DNA of 13,224 bases from a virus. Shown in pieces: positions 1 through 11,799 of the stretch. Where the stretch lies: the UHGV virus genome UHGV-0142834; one strand, given 5' to 3'. The position numbers were made by a program, and so were the translations under genes. The notes under the pieces were generated by a model, which saw nothing but the letters and a program-made list of their open reading frames with translations, was not told the DNA's origin and did no database searches. The first letter of the stretch is position 1. Each line of letters begins with the position of its first letter.

Positions 1-217
1 ACCATGAAACCCTTACCCATGGCTGTTCTCAGGTGGGGTGCGTGTAATCGTGAAAGAGGAAGGTAGGTTGTTTATCTGTGTCTGTCATTGTCTAGCATTG
101 TCCACTGTAGTTAATTAACTGTCTGTTATAACTCGAAAAACAACCCTTTTTTCACCTGAGTATGTCTACGAACGTCAAATATAGTTGTTTACTGTGCGCT
201 GTTGTCCATGTGATATT

Positions 218-261
218 GTGTACCAGATGTGTACCAAACCATTATTTCTGAGCGTACCAAA
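218..261. repeat. Three direct repeats of a GTACCA core (gtgtaccag / gtgtaccaaa / gcgtaccaaa) immediately upstream of the int start; possible arm-type integrase binding sites or int promoter/operator
   Basis: Read directly: repeats at about 218-226, 229-238, 252-261, ending 9 nt before the int ATG at 270. No Shine-Dalgarno sequence for int in this stretch. Confidence 0.3.
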
Positions 262-269
262 TATTATTT

Positions 270-1448
270 ATGGCTATAAGCGACACAAAACTGCGTACTA
301 TTTATGGTAAACCATATTCGGGCCCACAAGAAGTGGCTGATGCCGATGGCCTCAGCGTACGAATTTCACCGAAGGGGGTCATCCAGTTCCAGTACCGCTA
401 TCGCTGGCATGGCAAGCCTAATCGACTTGGGCTTGGTCGATACCCATCCCTGTCTTTGAAGGATGCCAGACAGATCACTGCTGACTTGCGAAAGCTCTAT
501 TTCTCAGGAACGGATCCACGCACCTATTTTGAAGAGAAGGTGGAGAACTCCATGACGGTCGCCCAGTGTCTCGACTACTGGTTCGACAACTACGTCTCTA
601 CAACTCTCAGAGAAAAGACCCAGGCACTTTACCGATCAACGGTTATGAAGCGCATGCATGACGCCTTTCCTAATCGTCCGGCATCTTCTATCACGGTTAA
701 GCAATGGGTTGACCTGCTTACCGAAGAAGAAAGAGATAATCCACGCCGAGCAAGGCAGGTGCTAAGTCAACTAAGATCAGCAATAAGTTGGTGCATGCGG
801 CGTCAGTTGATAGATAGTTGCGCAATTATGAGCATCCAACCAAGGGACTTCGGCTCCCGCGCTGAGGTAGGGGATCGGGTACTGTCGTATCACGAACTGG
901 CTAAGATTTGGCTTGCTATTGAAAGAAGCCGTGCGTCTACGTCAAATAAGCTACTTCATCAGATGCTTATGCTGTGGGGGGCGAGGCTCTCAGAGCTTAG
1001 GCTGGCAACAAAGACAGAATTTGACCTGCTGGACAACGTATGGACCGTACCGAAAGAGCATAGCAAGATGGGTAATGTTATCCGTCGTCCAATCTTCGAA
1101 CAAATTAAGCCTTTTCTCGAAAAGGCCATGACAACGTACAATGATGTTCTTTTCCCTGGAGAAGACATAAACAAACCGATCAGCATCGCTGCAGCCAACC
1201 GATTCGTAAATAGAATAAGGGGAGGGATGGATCTAGGTTACTGGCGAACACATGATTTCAGAAGAACGCTTGTTACACGTCTGTCCGAGATGAATGTCGA
1301 GCCTCATGTTACTGAGCGAATGCTCGGTCATGAACTTGGCGGGATAATGTCCGTGTACAATAAACACGACTGGATAGAGGCTCAGCGCAAAGCTTATGAG
1401 CTTCACGCTGATAAATTGTTCTGGCACATCAGGAGCATTTCTGGTTAA
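270..1448 (+). CDS. int: Tyrosine site-specific integrase, P4-type (N-terminal arm-binding-like domain plus C-terminal catalytic domain)
   Basis: 392 aa ORF with ATG start. N-terminus (GKPYS..DGLSVRISPKG..FQYRYRWHGK..LGLGRYPSLSLKDAR) resembles the P4/IntS-type integrase N-domain. C-terminus has tyrosine recombinase motifs (HDFRRT, LGHELGG..SVYNKHDW with the catalytic Tyr). Confidence 0.9.
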   Translation: MAISDTKLRTIYGKPYSGPQEVADADGLSVRISPKGVIQFQYRYRWHGKPNRLGLGRYPSLSLKDARQITADLRKLYFSGTDPRTYFEEKVENSMTVAQCLDYWFDNYVSTTLREKTQALYRSTVMKRMHDAFPNRPASSITVKQWVDLLTEEERDNPRRARQVLSQLRSAISWCMRRQLIDSCAIMSIQPRDFGSRAEVGDRVLSYHELAKIWLAIERSRASTSNKLLHQMLMLWGARLSELRLATKTEFDLLDNVWTVPKEHSKMGNVIRRPIFEQIKPFLEKAMTTYNDVLFPGEDINKPISIAAANRFVNRIRGGMDLGYWRTHDFRRTLVTRLSEMNVEPHVTERMLGHELGGIMSVYNKHDWIEAQRKAYELHADKLFWHIRSISG

Positions 1449-1620
1449 CGCCACCGTTAAGAATCCACCCTTCAACAGCTTCACGAAGGTATGATTTTGG
1501 GTGGGTTCTGACTGGCTTCGGAAATCCGTGCCGTTTGGTATAGTTCCAGATTGTCTGACGTGATGAAACACCGAGCTTGTTCATCACTTCTTTCTCAGGA
1601 ATCAGGCTGGTATCGGTCAT
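1429..1620 (-). CDS. xis: AlpA/Xis-like excisionase or small DNA-binding regulator
   Basis: 63 aa, ATG at 1620 with GGAG 9 nt upstream. The pattern LIPEKEVMNKLGVS..TIWNYTKRHGFPKPV..EAVEGWI matches the AlpA/phage excisionase HTH signature (..FPKPV....W...EVE.W). Its 3' end overlaps the int 3' end convergently by 20 bp. Confidence 0.7.
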   Translation of the reverse strand: MTDTSLIPEKEVMNKLGVSSRQTIWNYTKRHGFPKPVRTHPKSYLREAVEGWILNGGVNQKCS

Positions 1621-1720
1621 CTTAATTCTCCAGGCAAAAAGAAACCGCCATATAGCGGCTCTATCAGATATGTACAGGCCTCATCGAGTGTGAGGCGGTG
1701 TGATTTCTTTATTTCCACTC

Positions 1721-1936
1721 TTAATGTTTGTCAGTGAATGGTTTCTCCATCTCCATTAATGCCTTATTCATCTCCTTTCGTAACTCTATAGCCATCCTGA
1801 CGGCTTCAACCTGAGCAGGATGTCGGTTAATTGCTGGAGAATATCGTCGGGAGCGAAGGATTGAGAAAACAAAGATAATGCAAGCAACTATCTGAATTGC
1901 ATTGCATGTTATTGATACAATGTGAATTGCAGCCAT
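1721..1936 (-). CDS. Hypothetical small membrane protein (N-terminal hydrophobic helix)
   Basis: 71 aa ORF, ATG at 1936 preceded by a G-rich stretch. N-terminal segment IVSITCNAIQIVACIIFVFSIL is hydrophobic. Same strand as the rest of the early-left operon. Confidence 0.4.
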   Translation of the reverse strand: MAAIHIVSITCNAIQIVACIIFVFSILRSRRYSPAINRHPAQVEAVRMAIELRKEMNKALMEMEKPFTDKH

Positions 1937-2127: not shown

Positions 2128-2199
2128 TTATCATCTCCATAAAACAAAACTCGCCGTAGCGAGTTCAGATAAAAGAAATCCCCGCGAGTGCGAGGATTG

Positions 2200-7079: not shown

Positions 7080-7183
7080 AAAGAAGATTTCCAATAATCA
7101 GAACAAGTCGGCTCCTGTTTAGTTACGAGCGACATTGCTCCGTGTATTCACTCGTTGGAATGAATACACAGTGCTTACTCGTA

Positions 7184-7654
7184 CTAATAAAATACCCAAT
7201 TTTCTGTTTCTTGGTTGTGCCCAAAGTTATATTCAATATCTGGTGTTGATGTATCAATATTCTTCATCCCATCAACAAGAGTTGATACAACAGCCAAATC
7301 TTGTTTGATTCTCATTAAATGGTATTTCTTCCGGCGCAATAAACTCTCAATGGCAAGTTTCTTCGTTGGGAATGCAAAAGATCTTTCTGCATTTTTTGCT
7401 ACTTTCTTAATTGCATATCTATTTCTCCTTTGTTTCCATTCCTGTAACCACTGATTTGGTGCTGGTTTAAAATTAACAATCCAATGCGCAGGAACCAACC
7501 ATGCATAATGCTCTGTCTGATGAAAAGCTATATATTGAAGTGCGAATATTTTTATCCCATCTTCTTCAACTGTCGCTTGGAATCTCCAGAAAACAGGCAT
7601 TCCATCATGTTCAGTTTCTGATTCAGGAAAAGGTACGCTCCATGATTTTGTCAT
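7184..7654 (-). CDS. Hypothetical protein (156 aa), accessory cassette gene 2
   Basis: ATG at 7654 preceded by GAGGTG with about a 5-nt spacer. Trp-rich with a basic C-terminal half; no motif I recognise. The local sequence is AT-rich. Confidence 0.65.
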   Translation of the reverse strand: MTKSWSVPFPESETEHDGMPVFWRFQATVEEDGIKIFALQYIAFHQTEHYAWLVPAHWIVNFKPAPNQWLQEWKQRRNRYAIKKVAKNAERSFAFPTKKLAIESLLRRKKYHLMRIKQDLAVVSTLVDGMKNIDTSTPDIEYNFGHNQETENWVFY

Positions 7655-8352: not shown

Positions 8353-8679
8353 TCAAATAAGTGGTTTGCTGCCTAATTTCATTTTCTGGCGACCAACACA
8401 AGTCACACCCATTTCACTGCGTGGCTTGCTGTACCATGTGCGCTGATTCTTGCGCTCAATACGTTGCAGGTTGCTTTCAATCTGTTCGTGGTATTCAGCC
8501 AGCACCGTAAGGTCTATCGGATTCAGTGCGCTTTCTACTCGTGATTTCGGTTTGCGATTCAGCGAGAGAATAGGGCGGTTAACTGGTTTTGCGCTTACCC
8601 CAACCAACAGGGGATTTGCTGCTTTCCATTGAGCCTGTTTCTCTGCGCGACGTTCGCGGCGGCGTGTTTGTGCATCCAT
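8353..8679 (-). CDS. N: Antitermination protein N (lambda N-like)
   Basis: Start at the ATG 8679..8677 with AGGAG at a 7-nt spacer. MDAQTRRRERRAEKQAQWKAANPLLVGVSAKPVNRPILSLNRKPKSRVESALNPIDLTVLAEYH.. matches the lambda N arginine-rich motif and most of the protein as I recall it; the C-terminus diverges. Confidence 0.9.
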   Translation of the reverse strand: MDAQTRRRERRAEKQAQWKAANPLLVGVSAKPVNRPILSLNRKPKSRVESALNPIDLTVLAEYHEQIESNLQRIERKNQRTWYSKPRSEMGVTCVGRQKMKLGSKPLI

Positions 8680-8851
8680 CTGGATTCTCCTGTCAGTTAG
8701 CTTTGGTGGTGTGGTAGGTGGGAGACCCATTTCGACCTGCTTCGGCCGACTTCAATTCGGCAATAGTTCCGCAGGCCTCGCCGCTTTACGTGCGACATAT
8801 TCCCATCCATGAACCCTTCACCACACCCCAAAGCCTTCTGCTTTGAATGCT

Positions 8852-8882
8852 GCCCTTCTTCAGGGCTTAATTTTTAAGAGCG
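8852..8882 (-). promoter_or_regulatory. nutL: nutL site (boxA CGCTCTTAA and boxB GCCCTGAAGAAGGGC on the minus strand)
   Basis: Plus strand reads gcccttcttcagggc (8852..8866) and ttaagagcg (8874..8882), the reverse complements of lambda nutL boxB and boxA. Located between pL and N. Confidence 0.85.
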
Positions 8883-8922: not shown

Positions 8923-8963
8923 AATATACCTACAGGTAAAACCCATGTCTATACCTGTAGGTA
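8923..8963 (-). promoter_or_regulatory. pL-like promoter with two overlapping dyad operators (OL)
   Basis: On the minus strand: -35 TAGACA (8946..8951), 17-bp spacer, -10 TATATT (8923..8928). Dyad operators TACCTACAGGTA (8927..8938) and TACCTGTAGGTA (8952..8963) overlap the -10 and -35. A third, split dyad TTACCTG-N10-CAGGTAA lies at 8984..9007. Confidence 0.5.
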
Positions 8964-9020
8964 AATAAAATTGATGTGAGAGTTTACCTGCTTGAATTTT
9001 CAGGTAATTAATTTTTTGGA

Positions 9021-9371: not shown

Positions 9372-10058
9372 TCAAACTTTTGGCAGATCGTCCTGGTCTA
9401 CGTACCTGGTGTGTTTCACAATAGCTGAAACAAAATGCATTTTATCAACTTCTTCAACAGGAAGAGTGATTGGGCGGTGATCACTGTTTATGCTACTAAA
9501 CTGATAATCACCGTCTCTTGTTTTGTTCATGATCTTTATCATGTTGTGACCGTCTTTGGTCCTTACAAAGACTTCATCACCTGGATGTACTGGCGTATTT
9601 GGTTCAATAACAACATATTCTCCTGACTGAATCCTTGGCCACATGCTGTCACCCTTAACCTTCAGACCGTAAGCATCTTTATCGCCGCTGTAGATGCTTA
9701 ACCAACCGGATCTGAATTCAATCATATCCACTGAGCCATCAACTCCCAAAACGGCTTCACCAATTACCGGAACAAAACCCGCACGAACGTTACCCGCAAA
9801 CTCAAGATGGTCCGTAGCTCCAGCTTTACCATCTGCAAGCATGTCCATCCATCCGCGTGGGAGATTAAAAGATTTTTCAATTAGTTCCATCATATCGTCA
9901 GCAATGCGTTTTTTTCCGCTTTTTCCTTCCGGATACAGCATTCTGGAAACGTATGATGGTTCCCTTTCTATTCGACGAGCCAACTCTGAGGCCTTTCCAT
10001 TACAGAATCGGTCTCTTATCTCTATCAGCCTTAGTCGTCTTTGTTCGTATTTATCCAT
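9372..10058 (-). CDS. cI: CI-type prophage repressor (N-terminal HTH, C-terminal LexA-like S24 peptidase domain)
   Basis: 228 aa, ATG at 10058. HTH region NGKASELARRIEREPSYVSRML. C-terminal KVKGDSMWPRIQSGEYVVIEP..GDEVFVRTKDGHNMIKIM contains the S24 Ser/Lys dyad context. Divergent from cro with operators between them. Confidence 0.9.
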   Translation of the reverse strand: MDKYEQRRLRLIEIRDRFCNGKASELARRIEREPSYVSRMLYPEGKSGKKRIADDMMELIEKSFNLPRGWMDMLADGKAGATDHLEFAGNVRAGFVPVIGEAVLGVDGSVDMIEFRSGWLSIYSGDKDAYGLKVKGDSMWPRIQSGEYVVIEPNTPVHPGDEVFVRTKDGHNMIKIMNKTRDGDYQFSSINSDHRPITLPVEEVDKMHFVSAIVKHTRYVDQDDLPKV

Positions 10059-10829: not shown

Positions 10830-10991
10830 ATGACAAAACGTCGTAAGAAATACCAGGAAAAAGAAGAGATTCGACACCCTGATTCACCTGAGGGATTAGT
10901 GGTAGCCGCAGCAAATAACAGGGCGTTCGCAGAGCGCCTTGTTGGTGTTTACAGACTAGCCAAAGCAGGAGTGAAACATGGGCGTCGTTAA
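10830..10991 (+). CDS. Possible small basic ORF (53 aa) between cII and O
   Basis: Hand-translated: [57 protein letters not shown] at a 6-nt spacer before the ATG. Overlaps the O start by 14 nt and the proposed pO -10, so it may be non-coding. Confidence 0.25.
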   Translation: MTKRRKKYQEKEEIRHPDSPEGLVVAAANNRAFAERLVGVYRLAKAGVKHGRR

Positions 10992-11799
10992 GTTAGCTGA
11001 TTACAGGCCTCAACTGGAGGTCGTGGAGCATCGCGTGGCAGATACCGAAGATGGTTTCATGCGCGTTGCTAACGAGATTACTGACAGTCTGCTGATGGCT
11101 GATTTAACCGTCCGGCAGTTGAAGGTGATGCTCGCTATCATGCGCAAGACATACGGATTCAATAAGCCGATGGATCGACTCACAAACACGCAGATAGCAG
11201 CCATGACAGGTATTCATCACACTCATGTTTGCGCTGCCAAGCGCCAGCTTATCGAGCGTAAATTCCTCATTGCTGATGGCGTGAAAATCGGAGTGAACAA
11301 GGTGGTTTCTCAGTGGATTAGCCAGGACAGCTTAACATTAGCTAAAACAGCTAATAAAACATTAGCCAAGTCGGCTAATGGGTATAAGCCAAGTCAGCTA
11401 AACACAAAAGACAATATACAAAAGACAATAAATACAAATACCCCCTTACCCCCTAACGGGGGTGGCGATGGGCAGGTTAAACCTGAACGTCGCAAGGCAG
11501 AACGAATCGACTACGAATCCTTCCTGAACGCCTACAACACCGAAGTCGGTGACAGACTGCCACACGCTGTTGCGGTCAACGAGAAACGCAAACGCCGCCT
11601 GAAGAAAATCATCCCGCAACTGAAAACGCCAAACGTGGACGGTTTCAGAGCGTATGTCAGGGCGTTTGTGCATCAGGCCAAGCCGTTTTACTTCGGAGAC
11701 AACGACACGGGCTGGACAGCTGATTTTGATTACCTGCTGAGGGAAGATTCGTTAACGGGAGTACGGGAAGGGAAGTTTGCAGACAGGGGGATTGCATGA
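10978..11799 (+). CDS. O: Replication initiation protein, lambda O-like N-terminal domain
   Basis: 273 aa, ATG at 10978 with AGGAG at a 7-nt spacer. [53 protein letters not shown] parallels lambda O N-domain ..ADLTKRQFKVLLAILRKTYGWNKPMDRITDSQLSEIT. Contains internal iterons. Confidence 0.85.
11318..11445. repeat. Candidate replication origin: four 17-18 bp iterons with internal dyad symmetry followed by an A-rich tract, inside the O gene
   Basis: ttagccaggacagcttaa (11318..11335), ttagctaaaacagctaa (11338..11354), ttagccaagtcggctaa (11362..11378), taagccaagtcagctaa (11385..11401), then acacaaaagacaatatacaaaagacaataaatacaaata. Same layout as ori-lambda within O. Confidence 0.6.

Follow-up and report, generated by a model that had tools for sequence, protein, structure and literature searches.

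The convergent int–xis overlap of a widespread lambdoid phage cassette: layout, conservation and possible antisense transcription

Integration and excision modules already described

In phage lambda, xis and int run in one direction and overlap head to tail, attP lies downstream of int, int has the cII-dependent promoter pI, and the sib element is located beyond attP. A different organization, with an inverted int and a xis gene proposed to be driven from pL, has been published for phi24B (vB_EcoP_24B; HM208303), one of the Stx2 phages (published in 2010; Fogg et al. 2011, PMC3064807). By qPCR and 5'-RACE, phi24B int was found to be transcribed in uninduced lysogens from its own promoter, independently of CI. 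The phi24B Xis is an experimentally validated excisionase: excision in a plasmid assay depended on it and, together with Int, both expressed from heterologous promoters, it resolved attL/attR substrates (PMC3064807). This paper makes no mention of gene overlap or antisense effects; in the HM208303 record, int (236..1405, + strand) and xis (1389..1571, − strand) overlap by 17 bp.

Two other systems deserve comparison. In the IntS-TorI modules of KplE1, HK620 and Sf6, the int promoter adjoins or overlaps att, on the side of the prophage end, and int is transcriptionally uncoupled from the gene of its AlpA/TorI-like directionality factor (Panis et al. 2010, PMC2951348). In the Staphylococcus aureus phage 80alpha, the ith/tha non-contiguous operon lies next to int and antisense transcription measurably regulates the lysogeny module (PMC11087260). 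There, a small gene carrying the annotation xis is read in the antisense direction relative to genes of the lysogeny module, as could happen in the locus studied here, but the proteins are unrelated, the 80alpha 'xis' does not encode an excisionase, and it acts on a defence gene rather than on int.

The cassette and its two genes

The window (the whole stretch of DNA analysed, 13,224 nucleotides) contains the following features around int and xis:

44..55, + strand: attP core GTAATCGTGAAA, of the 2851/Sf101 type and sbcB-specific, a unique exact match in the window
217..225 and 228..236, + strand: two direct repeats TGTGTACCA with 11-bp spacing, found by repeat search just upstream of the int ATG
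254..262, + strand: repeat GTACCAAAT, found by repeat search just upstream of the int ATG
270..1448, + strand: int, a P4-like tyrosine integrase of 392 aa, assigned by Pfam, PHROG and identity to phi24B
1429..1448, both strands: int–xis overlap, from the sequence and a junction comparison of 50 loci
1429..1620, − strand: xis, encoding a candidate directionality factor of winged-helix type (63 aa, AlpA/HTH_17-like), assigned by homology to phi24B Xis and by PHROG 66

The Int protein scored above the cut-offs of the Pfam domains Arm-DNA-bind_3 (64.8 bits, 8e-18) and Phage_integrase (61.5 bits, 1e-16), matched the integrase family PHROG 1 (2.6e-74) and shared 57% of its residues with the phi24B-type Int in an alignment of 391 aa (E 3e-178), which places it in the same integrase family. 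The attP core agreed with the attP/attL core reported for Sf101 and phage 2851 at 12 of its 13 bp (PMC4159516), and homology with prophage records and E. coli chromosomes breaks at position 44, beside sbcB. As in phi24B, attP is upstream of int, int points into the phage and is inverted compared with lambda, and xis is oriented with pL. The repeats at 217..262 are putative arm-type Int sites that would overlap the int promoter or leader, by analogy with the autoregulation of KplE1 intS (PMC2951348). The attP arms also include repeats at 79–129. We detected no consensus promoter for int passing the scan in positions 1–270, and the promoter considered below was placed by eye and by analogy. The upstream region could not be aligned with the 5'-RACE-mapped region of phi24B, as the attP and promoter sequences shared no usable similarity.

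A sequence-only reading of the window had proposed that int and a xis-like gene converge and overlap by 20 bp at their 3' ends, and that the latter closes the leftward operon. Both proposals agree with the ORF list and the sequence. The int gene ends with a TAA at 1446–1448, whereas xis starts with an ATG at 1620–1618, preceded by a GGAG Shine-Dalgarno motif at 1631–1628, and ends with a TGA read from 1431 to 1429, giving a tail-to-tail overlap of 20 bp with both stop codons counted. The complement of the xis stop lies within the Int codons H-I-R and the int TAA lies within the Xis codons V-N (GTTAAC). As to gene order, all plausible genes from the N-like gene (8353..8730) to xis are on the − strand. 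The overlap is no artefact of a chance ORF, since it recurs in diverged relatives.

The whole cassette, from position ~3 to 1697, was roughly 98–99% identical in DNA sequence to the module of phages 2851, 1717, HK140, HK544, mEp234 and Sf101 over attP, int, xis and the terminator upstream of xis. The two annotated copies that we examined, HK140 and APC_JM3.2, have an identical 20-bp overlap. Between the window and the module of these phages there are only point changes, such as Int tail SISG versus SISD, and a variant of the terminator loop, whereas the flanking early-left genes are mosaic. The cassette was found beside sbcB in 528–583 of 5426 complete E. coli genomes (~10%). The window thus probably carries the integration/excision cassette of a '2851 type' lambdoid phage with an sbcB attB and an Int/Xis pair of the phi24B family, a placement that we assess jointly with the transcriptional scheme presented below. 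Compared with phi24B, the attachment specificity differs (sbcB in the window), the tails of both proteins are off by one codon (17-bp overlap instead of 20 bp, in one and the same phase), and Xis has been validated experimentally in phi24B but is assigned by homology in the 2851 type.

Membership in the KplE1/HK620/Sf6 module could be rejected, in spite of the probably shared uncoupling of int from an AlpA/TorI-like factor gene and of the comparable position of the putative int promoter. In Sf6, int (16781–17938, −), attP (18099–18114) and the TorI-like gene (18188–18388, −) are co-directional, integration splits the two genes to opposite prophage ends and they do not overlap; in the window, xis and int are neighbours, with attP to one side of the pair. 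In the phage records searched, tBLASTn with the window Xis gave weaker matches beside tRNA-Arg integrases in vB_EcoS-716R3 (46% identity) and Klebsiella phage 1 LV-2017 (44%), and neither Sf6 nor HK620 was among the matches listed. A lambda-type xis-int operon with sib was also rejected: the window genes are convergent, attP is upstream of int, no cII-dependent pI or conserved sib analogue is present, and the only strong hairpin after xis is lineage-specific (see below). The earlier claim that the layout departs from the co-directional xis-int genes and sib of lambda therefore stands, but not as a novelty, since that of phi24B had been published (PMC3064807). The convergent, overlapping int–xis pair is nothing unusual: this layout belongs to a widespread phage cassette and has been described before.

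The small protein had been read as Xis-like, and the comparison with phi24B upholds it as an excisionase candidate. Over 58 aa, 47% of its residues were identical to those of the validated phi24B Xis (E 4e-19), whose sequence we confirmed from HM208303 and whose residues F31, P32, V35 and L36 agree with the published ones (PMC3064807). This level of similarity places it in the same family of small Xis proteins. It also matched PHROG 66, 'excisionase and transcriptional regulator' (1.9e-8). Its Pfam scores were below the gathering thresholds for both Phage_AlpA (PF05930; 17.8 versus 21 bits) and HTH_17 (PF12728; 16.8 versus 27 bits), making it a distant relative of these families and not a formal member. 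At E<0.01, 10 of 31 members of the Xis family matched Phage_AlpA and 18 matched HTH_17, and the family profile matched PDB 8c3t, an AlpA-family protein (E 5.7e-5). This weak Pfam similarity, together with the annotation of the best PDB relative merely as 'AlpA family phage regulatory protein' and the staphylococcal precedent of a gene annotated xis that proved to be no excisionase (PMC11087260), might suggest that the protein controls the transcription of int or of other genes, as an AlpA-like regulator or an antiterminator, instead of being a directionality factor. We consider this very unlikely in view of the 47% identity to a protein that was active with Int from heterologous promoters, of the co-divergence of Xis with Int across the family (r = 0.73) and of the physical interlock of xis with int in that family. 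The homology thus favours a genuine excisionase candidate.

Conservation of the overlap across relatives

A tail-to-tail overlap of 17–23 bp is present in the records of Cronobacter, Klebsiella, Salmonella, Proteus and Hafnia phages, as well as in phi24B. Among homologous loci with a detectable Xis homologue, counted with one genome per species, 49 of 58 have overlapping genes, and the overlap lengths (11, 14, 17, 20 or 23 bp) are all 2 mod 3, i.e., in a single phase. The junction comparison of 50 loci revealed that each stop codon is embedded in a conserved motif of the partner protein, H-[IV]-[KR] in Int and GG[VI]N in Xis, and that the overlapped codons between these motifs encode poorly conserved tails of both proteins. 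The window cassette has this phase and these interlocked stops. We observed the interlocked overlap across Enterobacterales, Orbales and some Vibrionaceae. Judging from these comparisons, the overlap is an old and deeply conserved trait of the family, fixed in phase and locked into conserved motifs of both proteins. Its age, phase lock and motif interlock constitute one descriptive point that has possibly not been described before.

Descent and the interlocked stop codons suffice to account for this conservation, without requiring any regulatory role. The overlap might be of no regulatory consequence, a frozen genome compaction that merely keeps cognate Int and Xis linked during mosaic exchange, as would fit the poorly conserved tails bounded by motifs that happen to hold the stop of the partner, the single phase in all lineages, the mosaic joints, which flank the cassette immediately past the terminator hairpin, and the existence of variants carrying 0.8–1.5 kb of cargo between int and xis. 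However, the very high retention of the overlap (49/58) is also compatible with selection, and some physical interference is to be expected when an antiterminated polymerase moves convergently over a common 3' end. We regard this interpretation as a serious possibility that falls a little short of being probable.

Transcription across the int–xis junction

The elements that may control transcription in and out of the junction are the following:

stem-loop 1661..1642 and U tract 1641..1632, − strand: rho-independent terminator directly upstream of the xis GGAG, from the terminator scan
2147..2198, − strand: two more leftward terminator-like hairpins, upstream in the operon, from the terminator scan
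1382..1411, − strand: 13-bp hairpin in the leftward (xis-sense) RNA, within the int coding sequence, 18 nt after the xis stop
1673..1715, + strand: rightward hairpin (1678–1696) with a U-rich tail, −12.7 kcal/mol, z −2.2, which may mark where the int transcript ends, past xis
8353..8730, − strand: N-like antiterminator gene (PHROG 271, 4e-27)
8882–8874, − strand: nutL boxA CGCTCTTAA, read from the sequence
8866–8852, − strand: nutL boxB GCCCTGAAGAAGGGC, read from the sequence
8923..8951, − strand: pL candidate TAGACA-17-TATATT, 10 of 12 matches in the promoter scan, flanked by operator-like repeats
9372..10058, − strand: CI-like repressor gene (PHROG 4 and related families)

The boxA and boxB at 8852..8882 presumably form a lambda-type nutL. 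With nutL downstream of the pL candidate and an N-like gene, the window appears to possess the parts of a lambda-type N/nut system. In lambda, Xis is supplied from pL via N antitermination through several terminators. The terminator directly upstream of xis has a fold energy of −11.6 kcal/mol, and the region between pL and xis contains at least six more sites resembling leftward terminators. The depositors of HK140 annotated a rho-independent terminator at the matching place, directly upstream of the xis homologue, and the loop/stem variant found in HK140 and APC_JM3.2 keeps the hairpin. We also found terminator-like hairpins upstream of xis in the Xenorhabdus, Providencia and Orbus loci and in phi24B, where the hairpin likewise lies between the preceding gene and xis and has a tail just short of the U-tract rule of the scan. 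A family-wide terminator at this place was rejected, since it is present in the 2851 type but absent from most other relatives.

Beyond xis, the scan of the leftward strand revealed no canonical intrinsic terminator near the junction that would separate xis from the body of int; the next candidate (1127–1108) is weak (−8.2 kcal/mol, z −1.1). A terminator blocking leftward read-through into int would have contradicted the sequence-only reading. What we found instead is a hairpin at 1382..1411, the strongest local − strand structure inside int. The 54-nt codon-aligned segment that contains it (1371..1424) folds at −19.3 kcal/mol and thereby surpasses 99.8% of its synonymous recodings. The hairpin has two G.U pairs that exist only on the − strand, and it is followed (after 1411–1382) by GCCUCUAU, with 3 U in 8 and no U tract. 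In 48 non-redundant relatives, the same segment exhibited no family-wide folding (median percentile 0.51, t-test p = 0.24, same as the control). We thus rejected this hairpin as a conserved sib-like or terminator element and retained it as lineage-specific. In this lineage, it could limit or process leftward transcripts and so reduce the transcript overlap.

For int-sense transcripts, no terminator-like site was detected from the int stop up to the start of xis, either in the window or in most relatives. The rightward hairpin further on, at 1678–1696, is absent from HK140 and APC_JM3.2 and has a different tail in L011; with such sites rare in relatives, it was rejected as a conserved int terminator beyond xis.

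Taken together, these features would be best accounted for by uncoupled transcription, a probable scheme for the 2851-type cassette as a whole. Pointing away from attP, int would be read from its own CI-independent promoter in the 200 bp proximal to attP/attL, so that Int would always be available at a low, probably autoregulated level. The xis gene would be the terminal gene of the pL operon, behind a rho-independent terminator, and would be expressed only upon N-modified read-through from pL, Xis appearing only after induction or early in infection. Given the terminators between pL and xis, both xis expression and the transcript antisense to int should depend on N antitermination. With int and xis expressed separately, directionality would be set by transcription itself, while the overlap would keep the cognate Int/Xis pair inseparable.

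The overlap also leaves no room for a terminator between the two genes, so that convergent transcripts must overlap: N-antiterminated leftward transcription would run antisense through int, and int transcripts would run antisense across xis. In the absence of a canonical terminator between xis and int, any transcript expressing xis must continue antisense into int. The proposal that leftward transcription enters int antisense is thus sustained past xis, but with the reservation that a terminator precedes xis and N antitermination is needed to reach it. Mechanistically, the two transcription units are likely to interfere with each other to some extent, and antisense damping of int, geometrically unavoidable to some degree, is plausible as a regulatory idea. 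The converse effect, of int transcripts on xis, is equally allowed by the geometry. Since excision requires Int, it is not obvious what the phage would gain from damping int at induction.

Whether selection has made use of this geometry is a separate question. The overlap could be a selected device by which pL/N transcription makes Xis while lowering Int by collision, promoter occlusion or degradation of duplex RNA, replacing the sib/pI control of lambda. Such a device would be served by the lack of a canonical terminator between xis and int and by nutL and the N-like gene, which would make the leftward polymerase resistant to terminators; it would agree with the retention of the overlap in 49 of the 58 loci, and antisense transcription is known to be functional in the lysogeny module of 80alpha (PMC11087260). 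However, Int itself is needed for excision, descent with interlocked stops already accounts for the conservation, relatives with cargo between the two genes persist, the family exhibits no RNA structure signal beside the junction, and we found no antisense or convergent int–xis regulation of this module in the literature searched. On balance, we consider a selected device of this kind unlikely.

The opposite direction of control appears slightly less probable still. Constitutive int transcription, antisense across all of xis, might suppress leaky Xis in lysogens and stabilize the prophage. In phi24B, int is indeed transcribed in uninduced lysogens, no reliable int terminator occurs before ~1700 in the window, and the presence of leftward terminators ahead of xis suggests a need to prevent leakage. 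Yet int is expected to have a weak promoter, the terminator upstream of xis may already suffice, and the rightward hairpin at 1678–1696 is not conserved. Both directions could also be combined in a two-way antisense toggle that maintains the overlap, with int transcription silencing stray xis in the lysogen and, after induction, N-antiterminated transcription from pL making Xis and shutting off new Int, in place of pI and sib. We hold this toggle to be improbable as well.

The cassette occurs in many Shiga-toxin phages, in serotype-converting Shigella phages and in about a tenth of complete E. coli genomes. Owing to this wide carriage, the timing of its integration and excision bears on prophage stability and on the spread of toxin phages. 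If the overlap did act as an antisense switch, it would represent a simple and widespread alternative to the sib/pI control of lambda.

Gene content and identity of the cassette

The integrase gene (int) and the small excisionase-like gene (xis) face each other with their 3' ends, and the ORF list and the sequence place 1429..1448 (20 bp) within both, so that the convergent overlap proposed by the sequence-only reading is borne out. Its description of xis as the last gene of the leftward operon also proved right as anatomy, since every plausible gene from an N-like gene to xis lies on the - strand; rightward cro/cII/replication-like ORFs and a CI-like repressor lie right of the N-like gene.

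Features of the window
270..1448, + strand: int, 392 aa, stop codon TAA at 1446-1448
1411..1382, leftward RNA: 13-bp hairpin, beginning 18 nt past the xis stop
1429..1620, - strand: xis, 63 aa, ATG 1620-1618, GGAG 1631-1628, TGA read 1431 to 1429
1661..1632, leftward: intrinsic terminator, stem-loop 1661..1642 and U tract 1641..1632, ending 1 base before the xis Shine-Dalgarno sequence
8353..8730, - strand: N-like gene
8882..8852: nutL, boxA CGCTCTTAA and boxB GCCCTGAAGAAGGGC
8951..8923, leftward: pL-like promoter
9372..10058: CI-like repressor

Int carries the Pfam domains Arm-DNA-bind_3 and Phage_integrase and matches PHROG 1. The xis product matches PHROG 66 ('excisionase and transcriptional regulator'), its Pfam matches to Phage_AlpA and HTH_17 both being sub-threshold. 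A tBLASTn search of phage records retrieved relatives of this protein at 42-67% identity; in most of these the match overlapped both an integrase feature and a small HTH/'Xis' one. The biggest group is the phi24B type of Stx2 phages. The window protein shows 47% identity to phi24B Xis (E 4e-19), and the window Int 57% to phi24B-type Int. Resolution of attL/attR plasmids in phi24B needs Xis together with Int (Fogg et al., PMC3064807). A profile of 31 family members matched the AlpA-family protein PDB 8c3t (E 5.7e-5); of the individual members, 18 matched HTH_17, 10 Phage_AlpA and 4 Phage_Cox. The assignment of the window's 2851-type small protein as an excisionase, already suspected in the sequence-only reading, is therefore well supported by homology.

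Phages 2851, 1717, HK140, HK544, mEp234, Sf101 and APC_JM3.2 carry an integration module that shares 98-99% identity with the region 3..~1697; this region is the already annotated 2851/HK140/Sf101 module, and the 20-bp overlap is likewise annotated in HK140 and APC_JM3.2. Of 5426 complete E. coli genomes, 528-583 contain the module, the homology there beginning at 44, adjoining sbcB. At 44-55 lies a single occurrence of GTAATCGTGAAA, which agrees at 12 of 13 bp with the attP/attL core published for Sf101 and phage 2851, both of which integrate in sbcB (PMC4159516). Between this core and the int ATG there are direct repeats, TGTCTGTCAT / TGTCTGTTAT (79-88, 120-129) and two copies of TGTGTACCA with 11-bp spacing (217-236) plus GTACCAAAT (254-262). 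These repeats overlap the int leader and are candidates for arm-type sites of Int, for Xis binding sites, or for both.

Transcription signals around xis

The terminator immediately upstream of xis is typical in form, belongs to the conserved module and leaves no room for a promoter between itself and xis. In HK140, too, the depositors annotated a rho-independent terminator at this place, just ahead of the small gene. A variant differing by 3 nt, present in HK140 and APC_JM3.2, preserves the stem and even strengthens it. Between pL and xis, six or more further leftward sites resembling terminators were counted, those listed being 7729, 7079, 7041, 2198 and 2166, plus 1661. Together with nutL, whose boxA and boxB agree exactly with those of lambda nutL, and the N-like gene, these terminators lead to the straightforward inference that xis would be delayed-early and N-dependent, as in lambda. 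In phi24B (locus L092), the interval separating the preceding gene from xis likewise holds a hairpin rich in G+C, AACCGCC-TTCG-GGCGGTT, and behind it a U-rich tail (1590-1632, - strand), echoing this arrangement.

The mosaic joints of the cassette (~1661, ~1697) fall directly after the leftward terminator hairpin in HK140 and APC_JM3.2, and inside the next hairpin in L011 and HK544, so that the terminator marks the module boundary. A 71-aa ORF at 1721-1936 (- strand; PHROG 15342, function unknown) with a hydrophobic N-terminal half looks moron-like, since it has no counterpart at the matching position of HK140 and is flanked by leftward terminators (2198-2147 and 1661-1642). The pL region (8923-9000) contains a repeated operator-like motif, TTTACCT(A/G)(C/T)AGGTA. 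Very stable local structures occur at ~7117-7190 (about -24 kcal/mol, - strand, near 7129) and at ~11431-11500 (about -30 kcal/mol, + strand, near 11443); the latter sits within a replication-initiator-like ORF (10978-11799) and may be an origin-type repeat region.

The sequence-only reading had leftward transcription running on into int. A terminator blocking this read-through was looked for, and the scan found none of canonical form downstream of xis on the leftward strand; the terminator described above stands upstream of xis and so gates xis and the antisense transcript alike. What follows xis is the 1411..1382 hairpin, and the bases behind it, GCCUCUAU, do not make up a U tract. Its pairing is complete only in leftward RNA, since two G.U pairs turn into C.A mismatches in int-sense RNA. 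No other - strand structure inside int is as strong, and the 54-nt codon-aligned segment around it, 1371..1424 (-19.3 kcal/mol), beats 99.8% of synonymous int recodings. A synonymous change in other module copies cuts the hairpin to 12 bp. When 48 non-redundant relatives were compared, the stretch that follows the xis stop showed no excess structure over synonymous recodings (median percentile 0.51, mean z -0.21, p = 0.24), nor did it differ from a control segment; hairpins at this place occur in a few lineages, some with U-rich tails. The hairpin is therefore a feature of its lineage, neither a conserved insulator nor a sib analogue; it could act as a 3' stabiliser, as a pause site or as a weak terminator. 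In the rightward direction, the window has no terminator-like site from the int stop to the xis start. A candidate with a U-rich tail comes first at 1678..1696; it is missing or altered in other module copies, and such sites are rare among relatives.

The int-xis overlap across the family

We scanned the family with an Int alignment, keeping one genome per species, which yielded 80 loci (Int identity 42-99%). A Xis homologue was found on the opposite strand within 1.6 kb downstream in 58 of them. In 49 of these 58, int and xis overlap by 11, 14, 17, 20 or 23 bp, always 2 mod 3 and thus in one relative phase throughout; two have out-of-phase overlaps (4 and 54 bp), and seven are gapped, two shortly (2 and 25 bp) and five by about 0.8-1.5 kb, implying an insertion. 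Phage records gave the same picture: 17 bp in phi24B (GenBank HM208303; int 236..1405 on the + strand, xis 1389..1571 on the - strand), in phages of the phi24B type and in Hafnia yong2, 20 bp in Cronobacter ENT39118, a Klebsiella phage and Salmonella SEN34, and 23 bp in a Proteus phage.

The two stops are interlocked with conserved protein motifs. Read as its complement (TCA/TTA), the xis stop sits within the codons of the Int motif H-[IV]-[KR], and the int stop (TAA/TGA) within those of the Xis motif GG[VI]N (e.g., GTTAAC or GTTGAC). Overlaps differ in length through 3-bp indels in the variable tails that separate the motifs. Int and Xis identities to the window proteins co-vary (r = 0.73). 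This constant phase and interlocking make the overlap an old inherited trait of the cassette in Enterobacterales, Orbales and some Vibrionaceae, not one specific to the window.

The overlap is nonetheless dispensable, as relatives with a gene between int and xis indicate (two phages and several genomic loci). In vB_EcoS-716R3 and Klebsiella phage 1 LV-2017 the separating gene is ~0.9 kb long; in these two loci (L009, 2784-3644; L010, 2803-3645) it is unannotated, lies on the int strand and encodes 280-286 aa with no confident Pfam match. Spacing of 0.8-1.5 kb was also seen in L015, L055, L067, L077, L081 and L087, and the junction may be an occasional site of cargo insertion. Four loci have odd contig labels (L032, Chryseobacterium sp.; L039, Martelella alba; L055, Pararhizobium MAG; L077, Psychrobacter sp.). 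Their cassettes are Enterobacterales-like, with 47-61% Int identity to the window, and the labels may reflect contamination or mislabelling, not true host range.

Regulatory logic and antisense transcription

The closest known system is the Int/Xis module of phi24B, which belongs to this family and agrees with the cassette in geometry and in overlap phase. Its int has the opposite orientation to that of lambda and is expressed in the lysogen independently of CI, and its xis was proposed to be under pL control; overlap or antisense effects are not mentioned in that paper (PMC3064807). The phi24B logic is the best-supported model for the window. Int would be made from its own att-proximal promoter whatever the CI state, and Xis only upon pL firing with N-enabled read-through, the presence or absence of Xis setting the direction of recombination. 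The repeats at 217-262 look like arm-type sites over the int leader and would fit negative autoregulation of int, as described for att-overlapping int promoters (PMC2951348).

With their 3' ends interlocked, int and xis cannot be transcribed without overlap of their transcripts: an N-modified leftward polymerase would cross int antisense, and int transcripts would cross xis antisense. The antisense damping of int put forward in the sequence-only reading is mechanically plausible from this layout; any adaptive value is not obvious, Int being required for excision. The mirror effect, silencing of xis by int transcription, is equally plausible, and conservation of the overlap is explicable without antisense damping. 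The observation behind that proposal is confirmed and its interpretation partly supported.

Other systems resemble the cassette in part. The KplE1/HK620/Sf6 module shares an att-proximal int promoter and int uncoupled from the directionality factor, but in Sf6 the gene for the TorI-like protein is co-directional with attP and int, and membership of the window cassette in that group was rejected on this co-directionality across attP. Lambda differs in orientation and attP position, the window cassette being without pI/sib. Staphylococcus aureus phage 80alpha has an antisense architecture of demonstrated function beside int (PMC11087260), although its genes are unrelated to int and xis of the window. 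We found no report, in the literature searched, of antisense control or a conserved interlock in this int-xis module. The convergent arrangement itself is already known; what is possibly undescribed, at the descriptive level, is that the overlap is ancient, phase-locked and interlocked with conserved motifs of both proteins.
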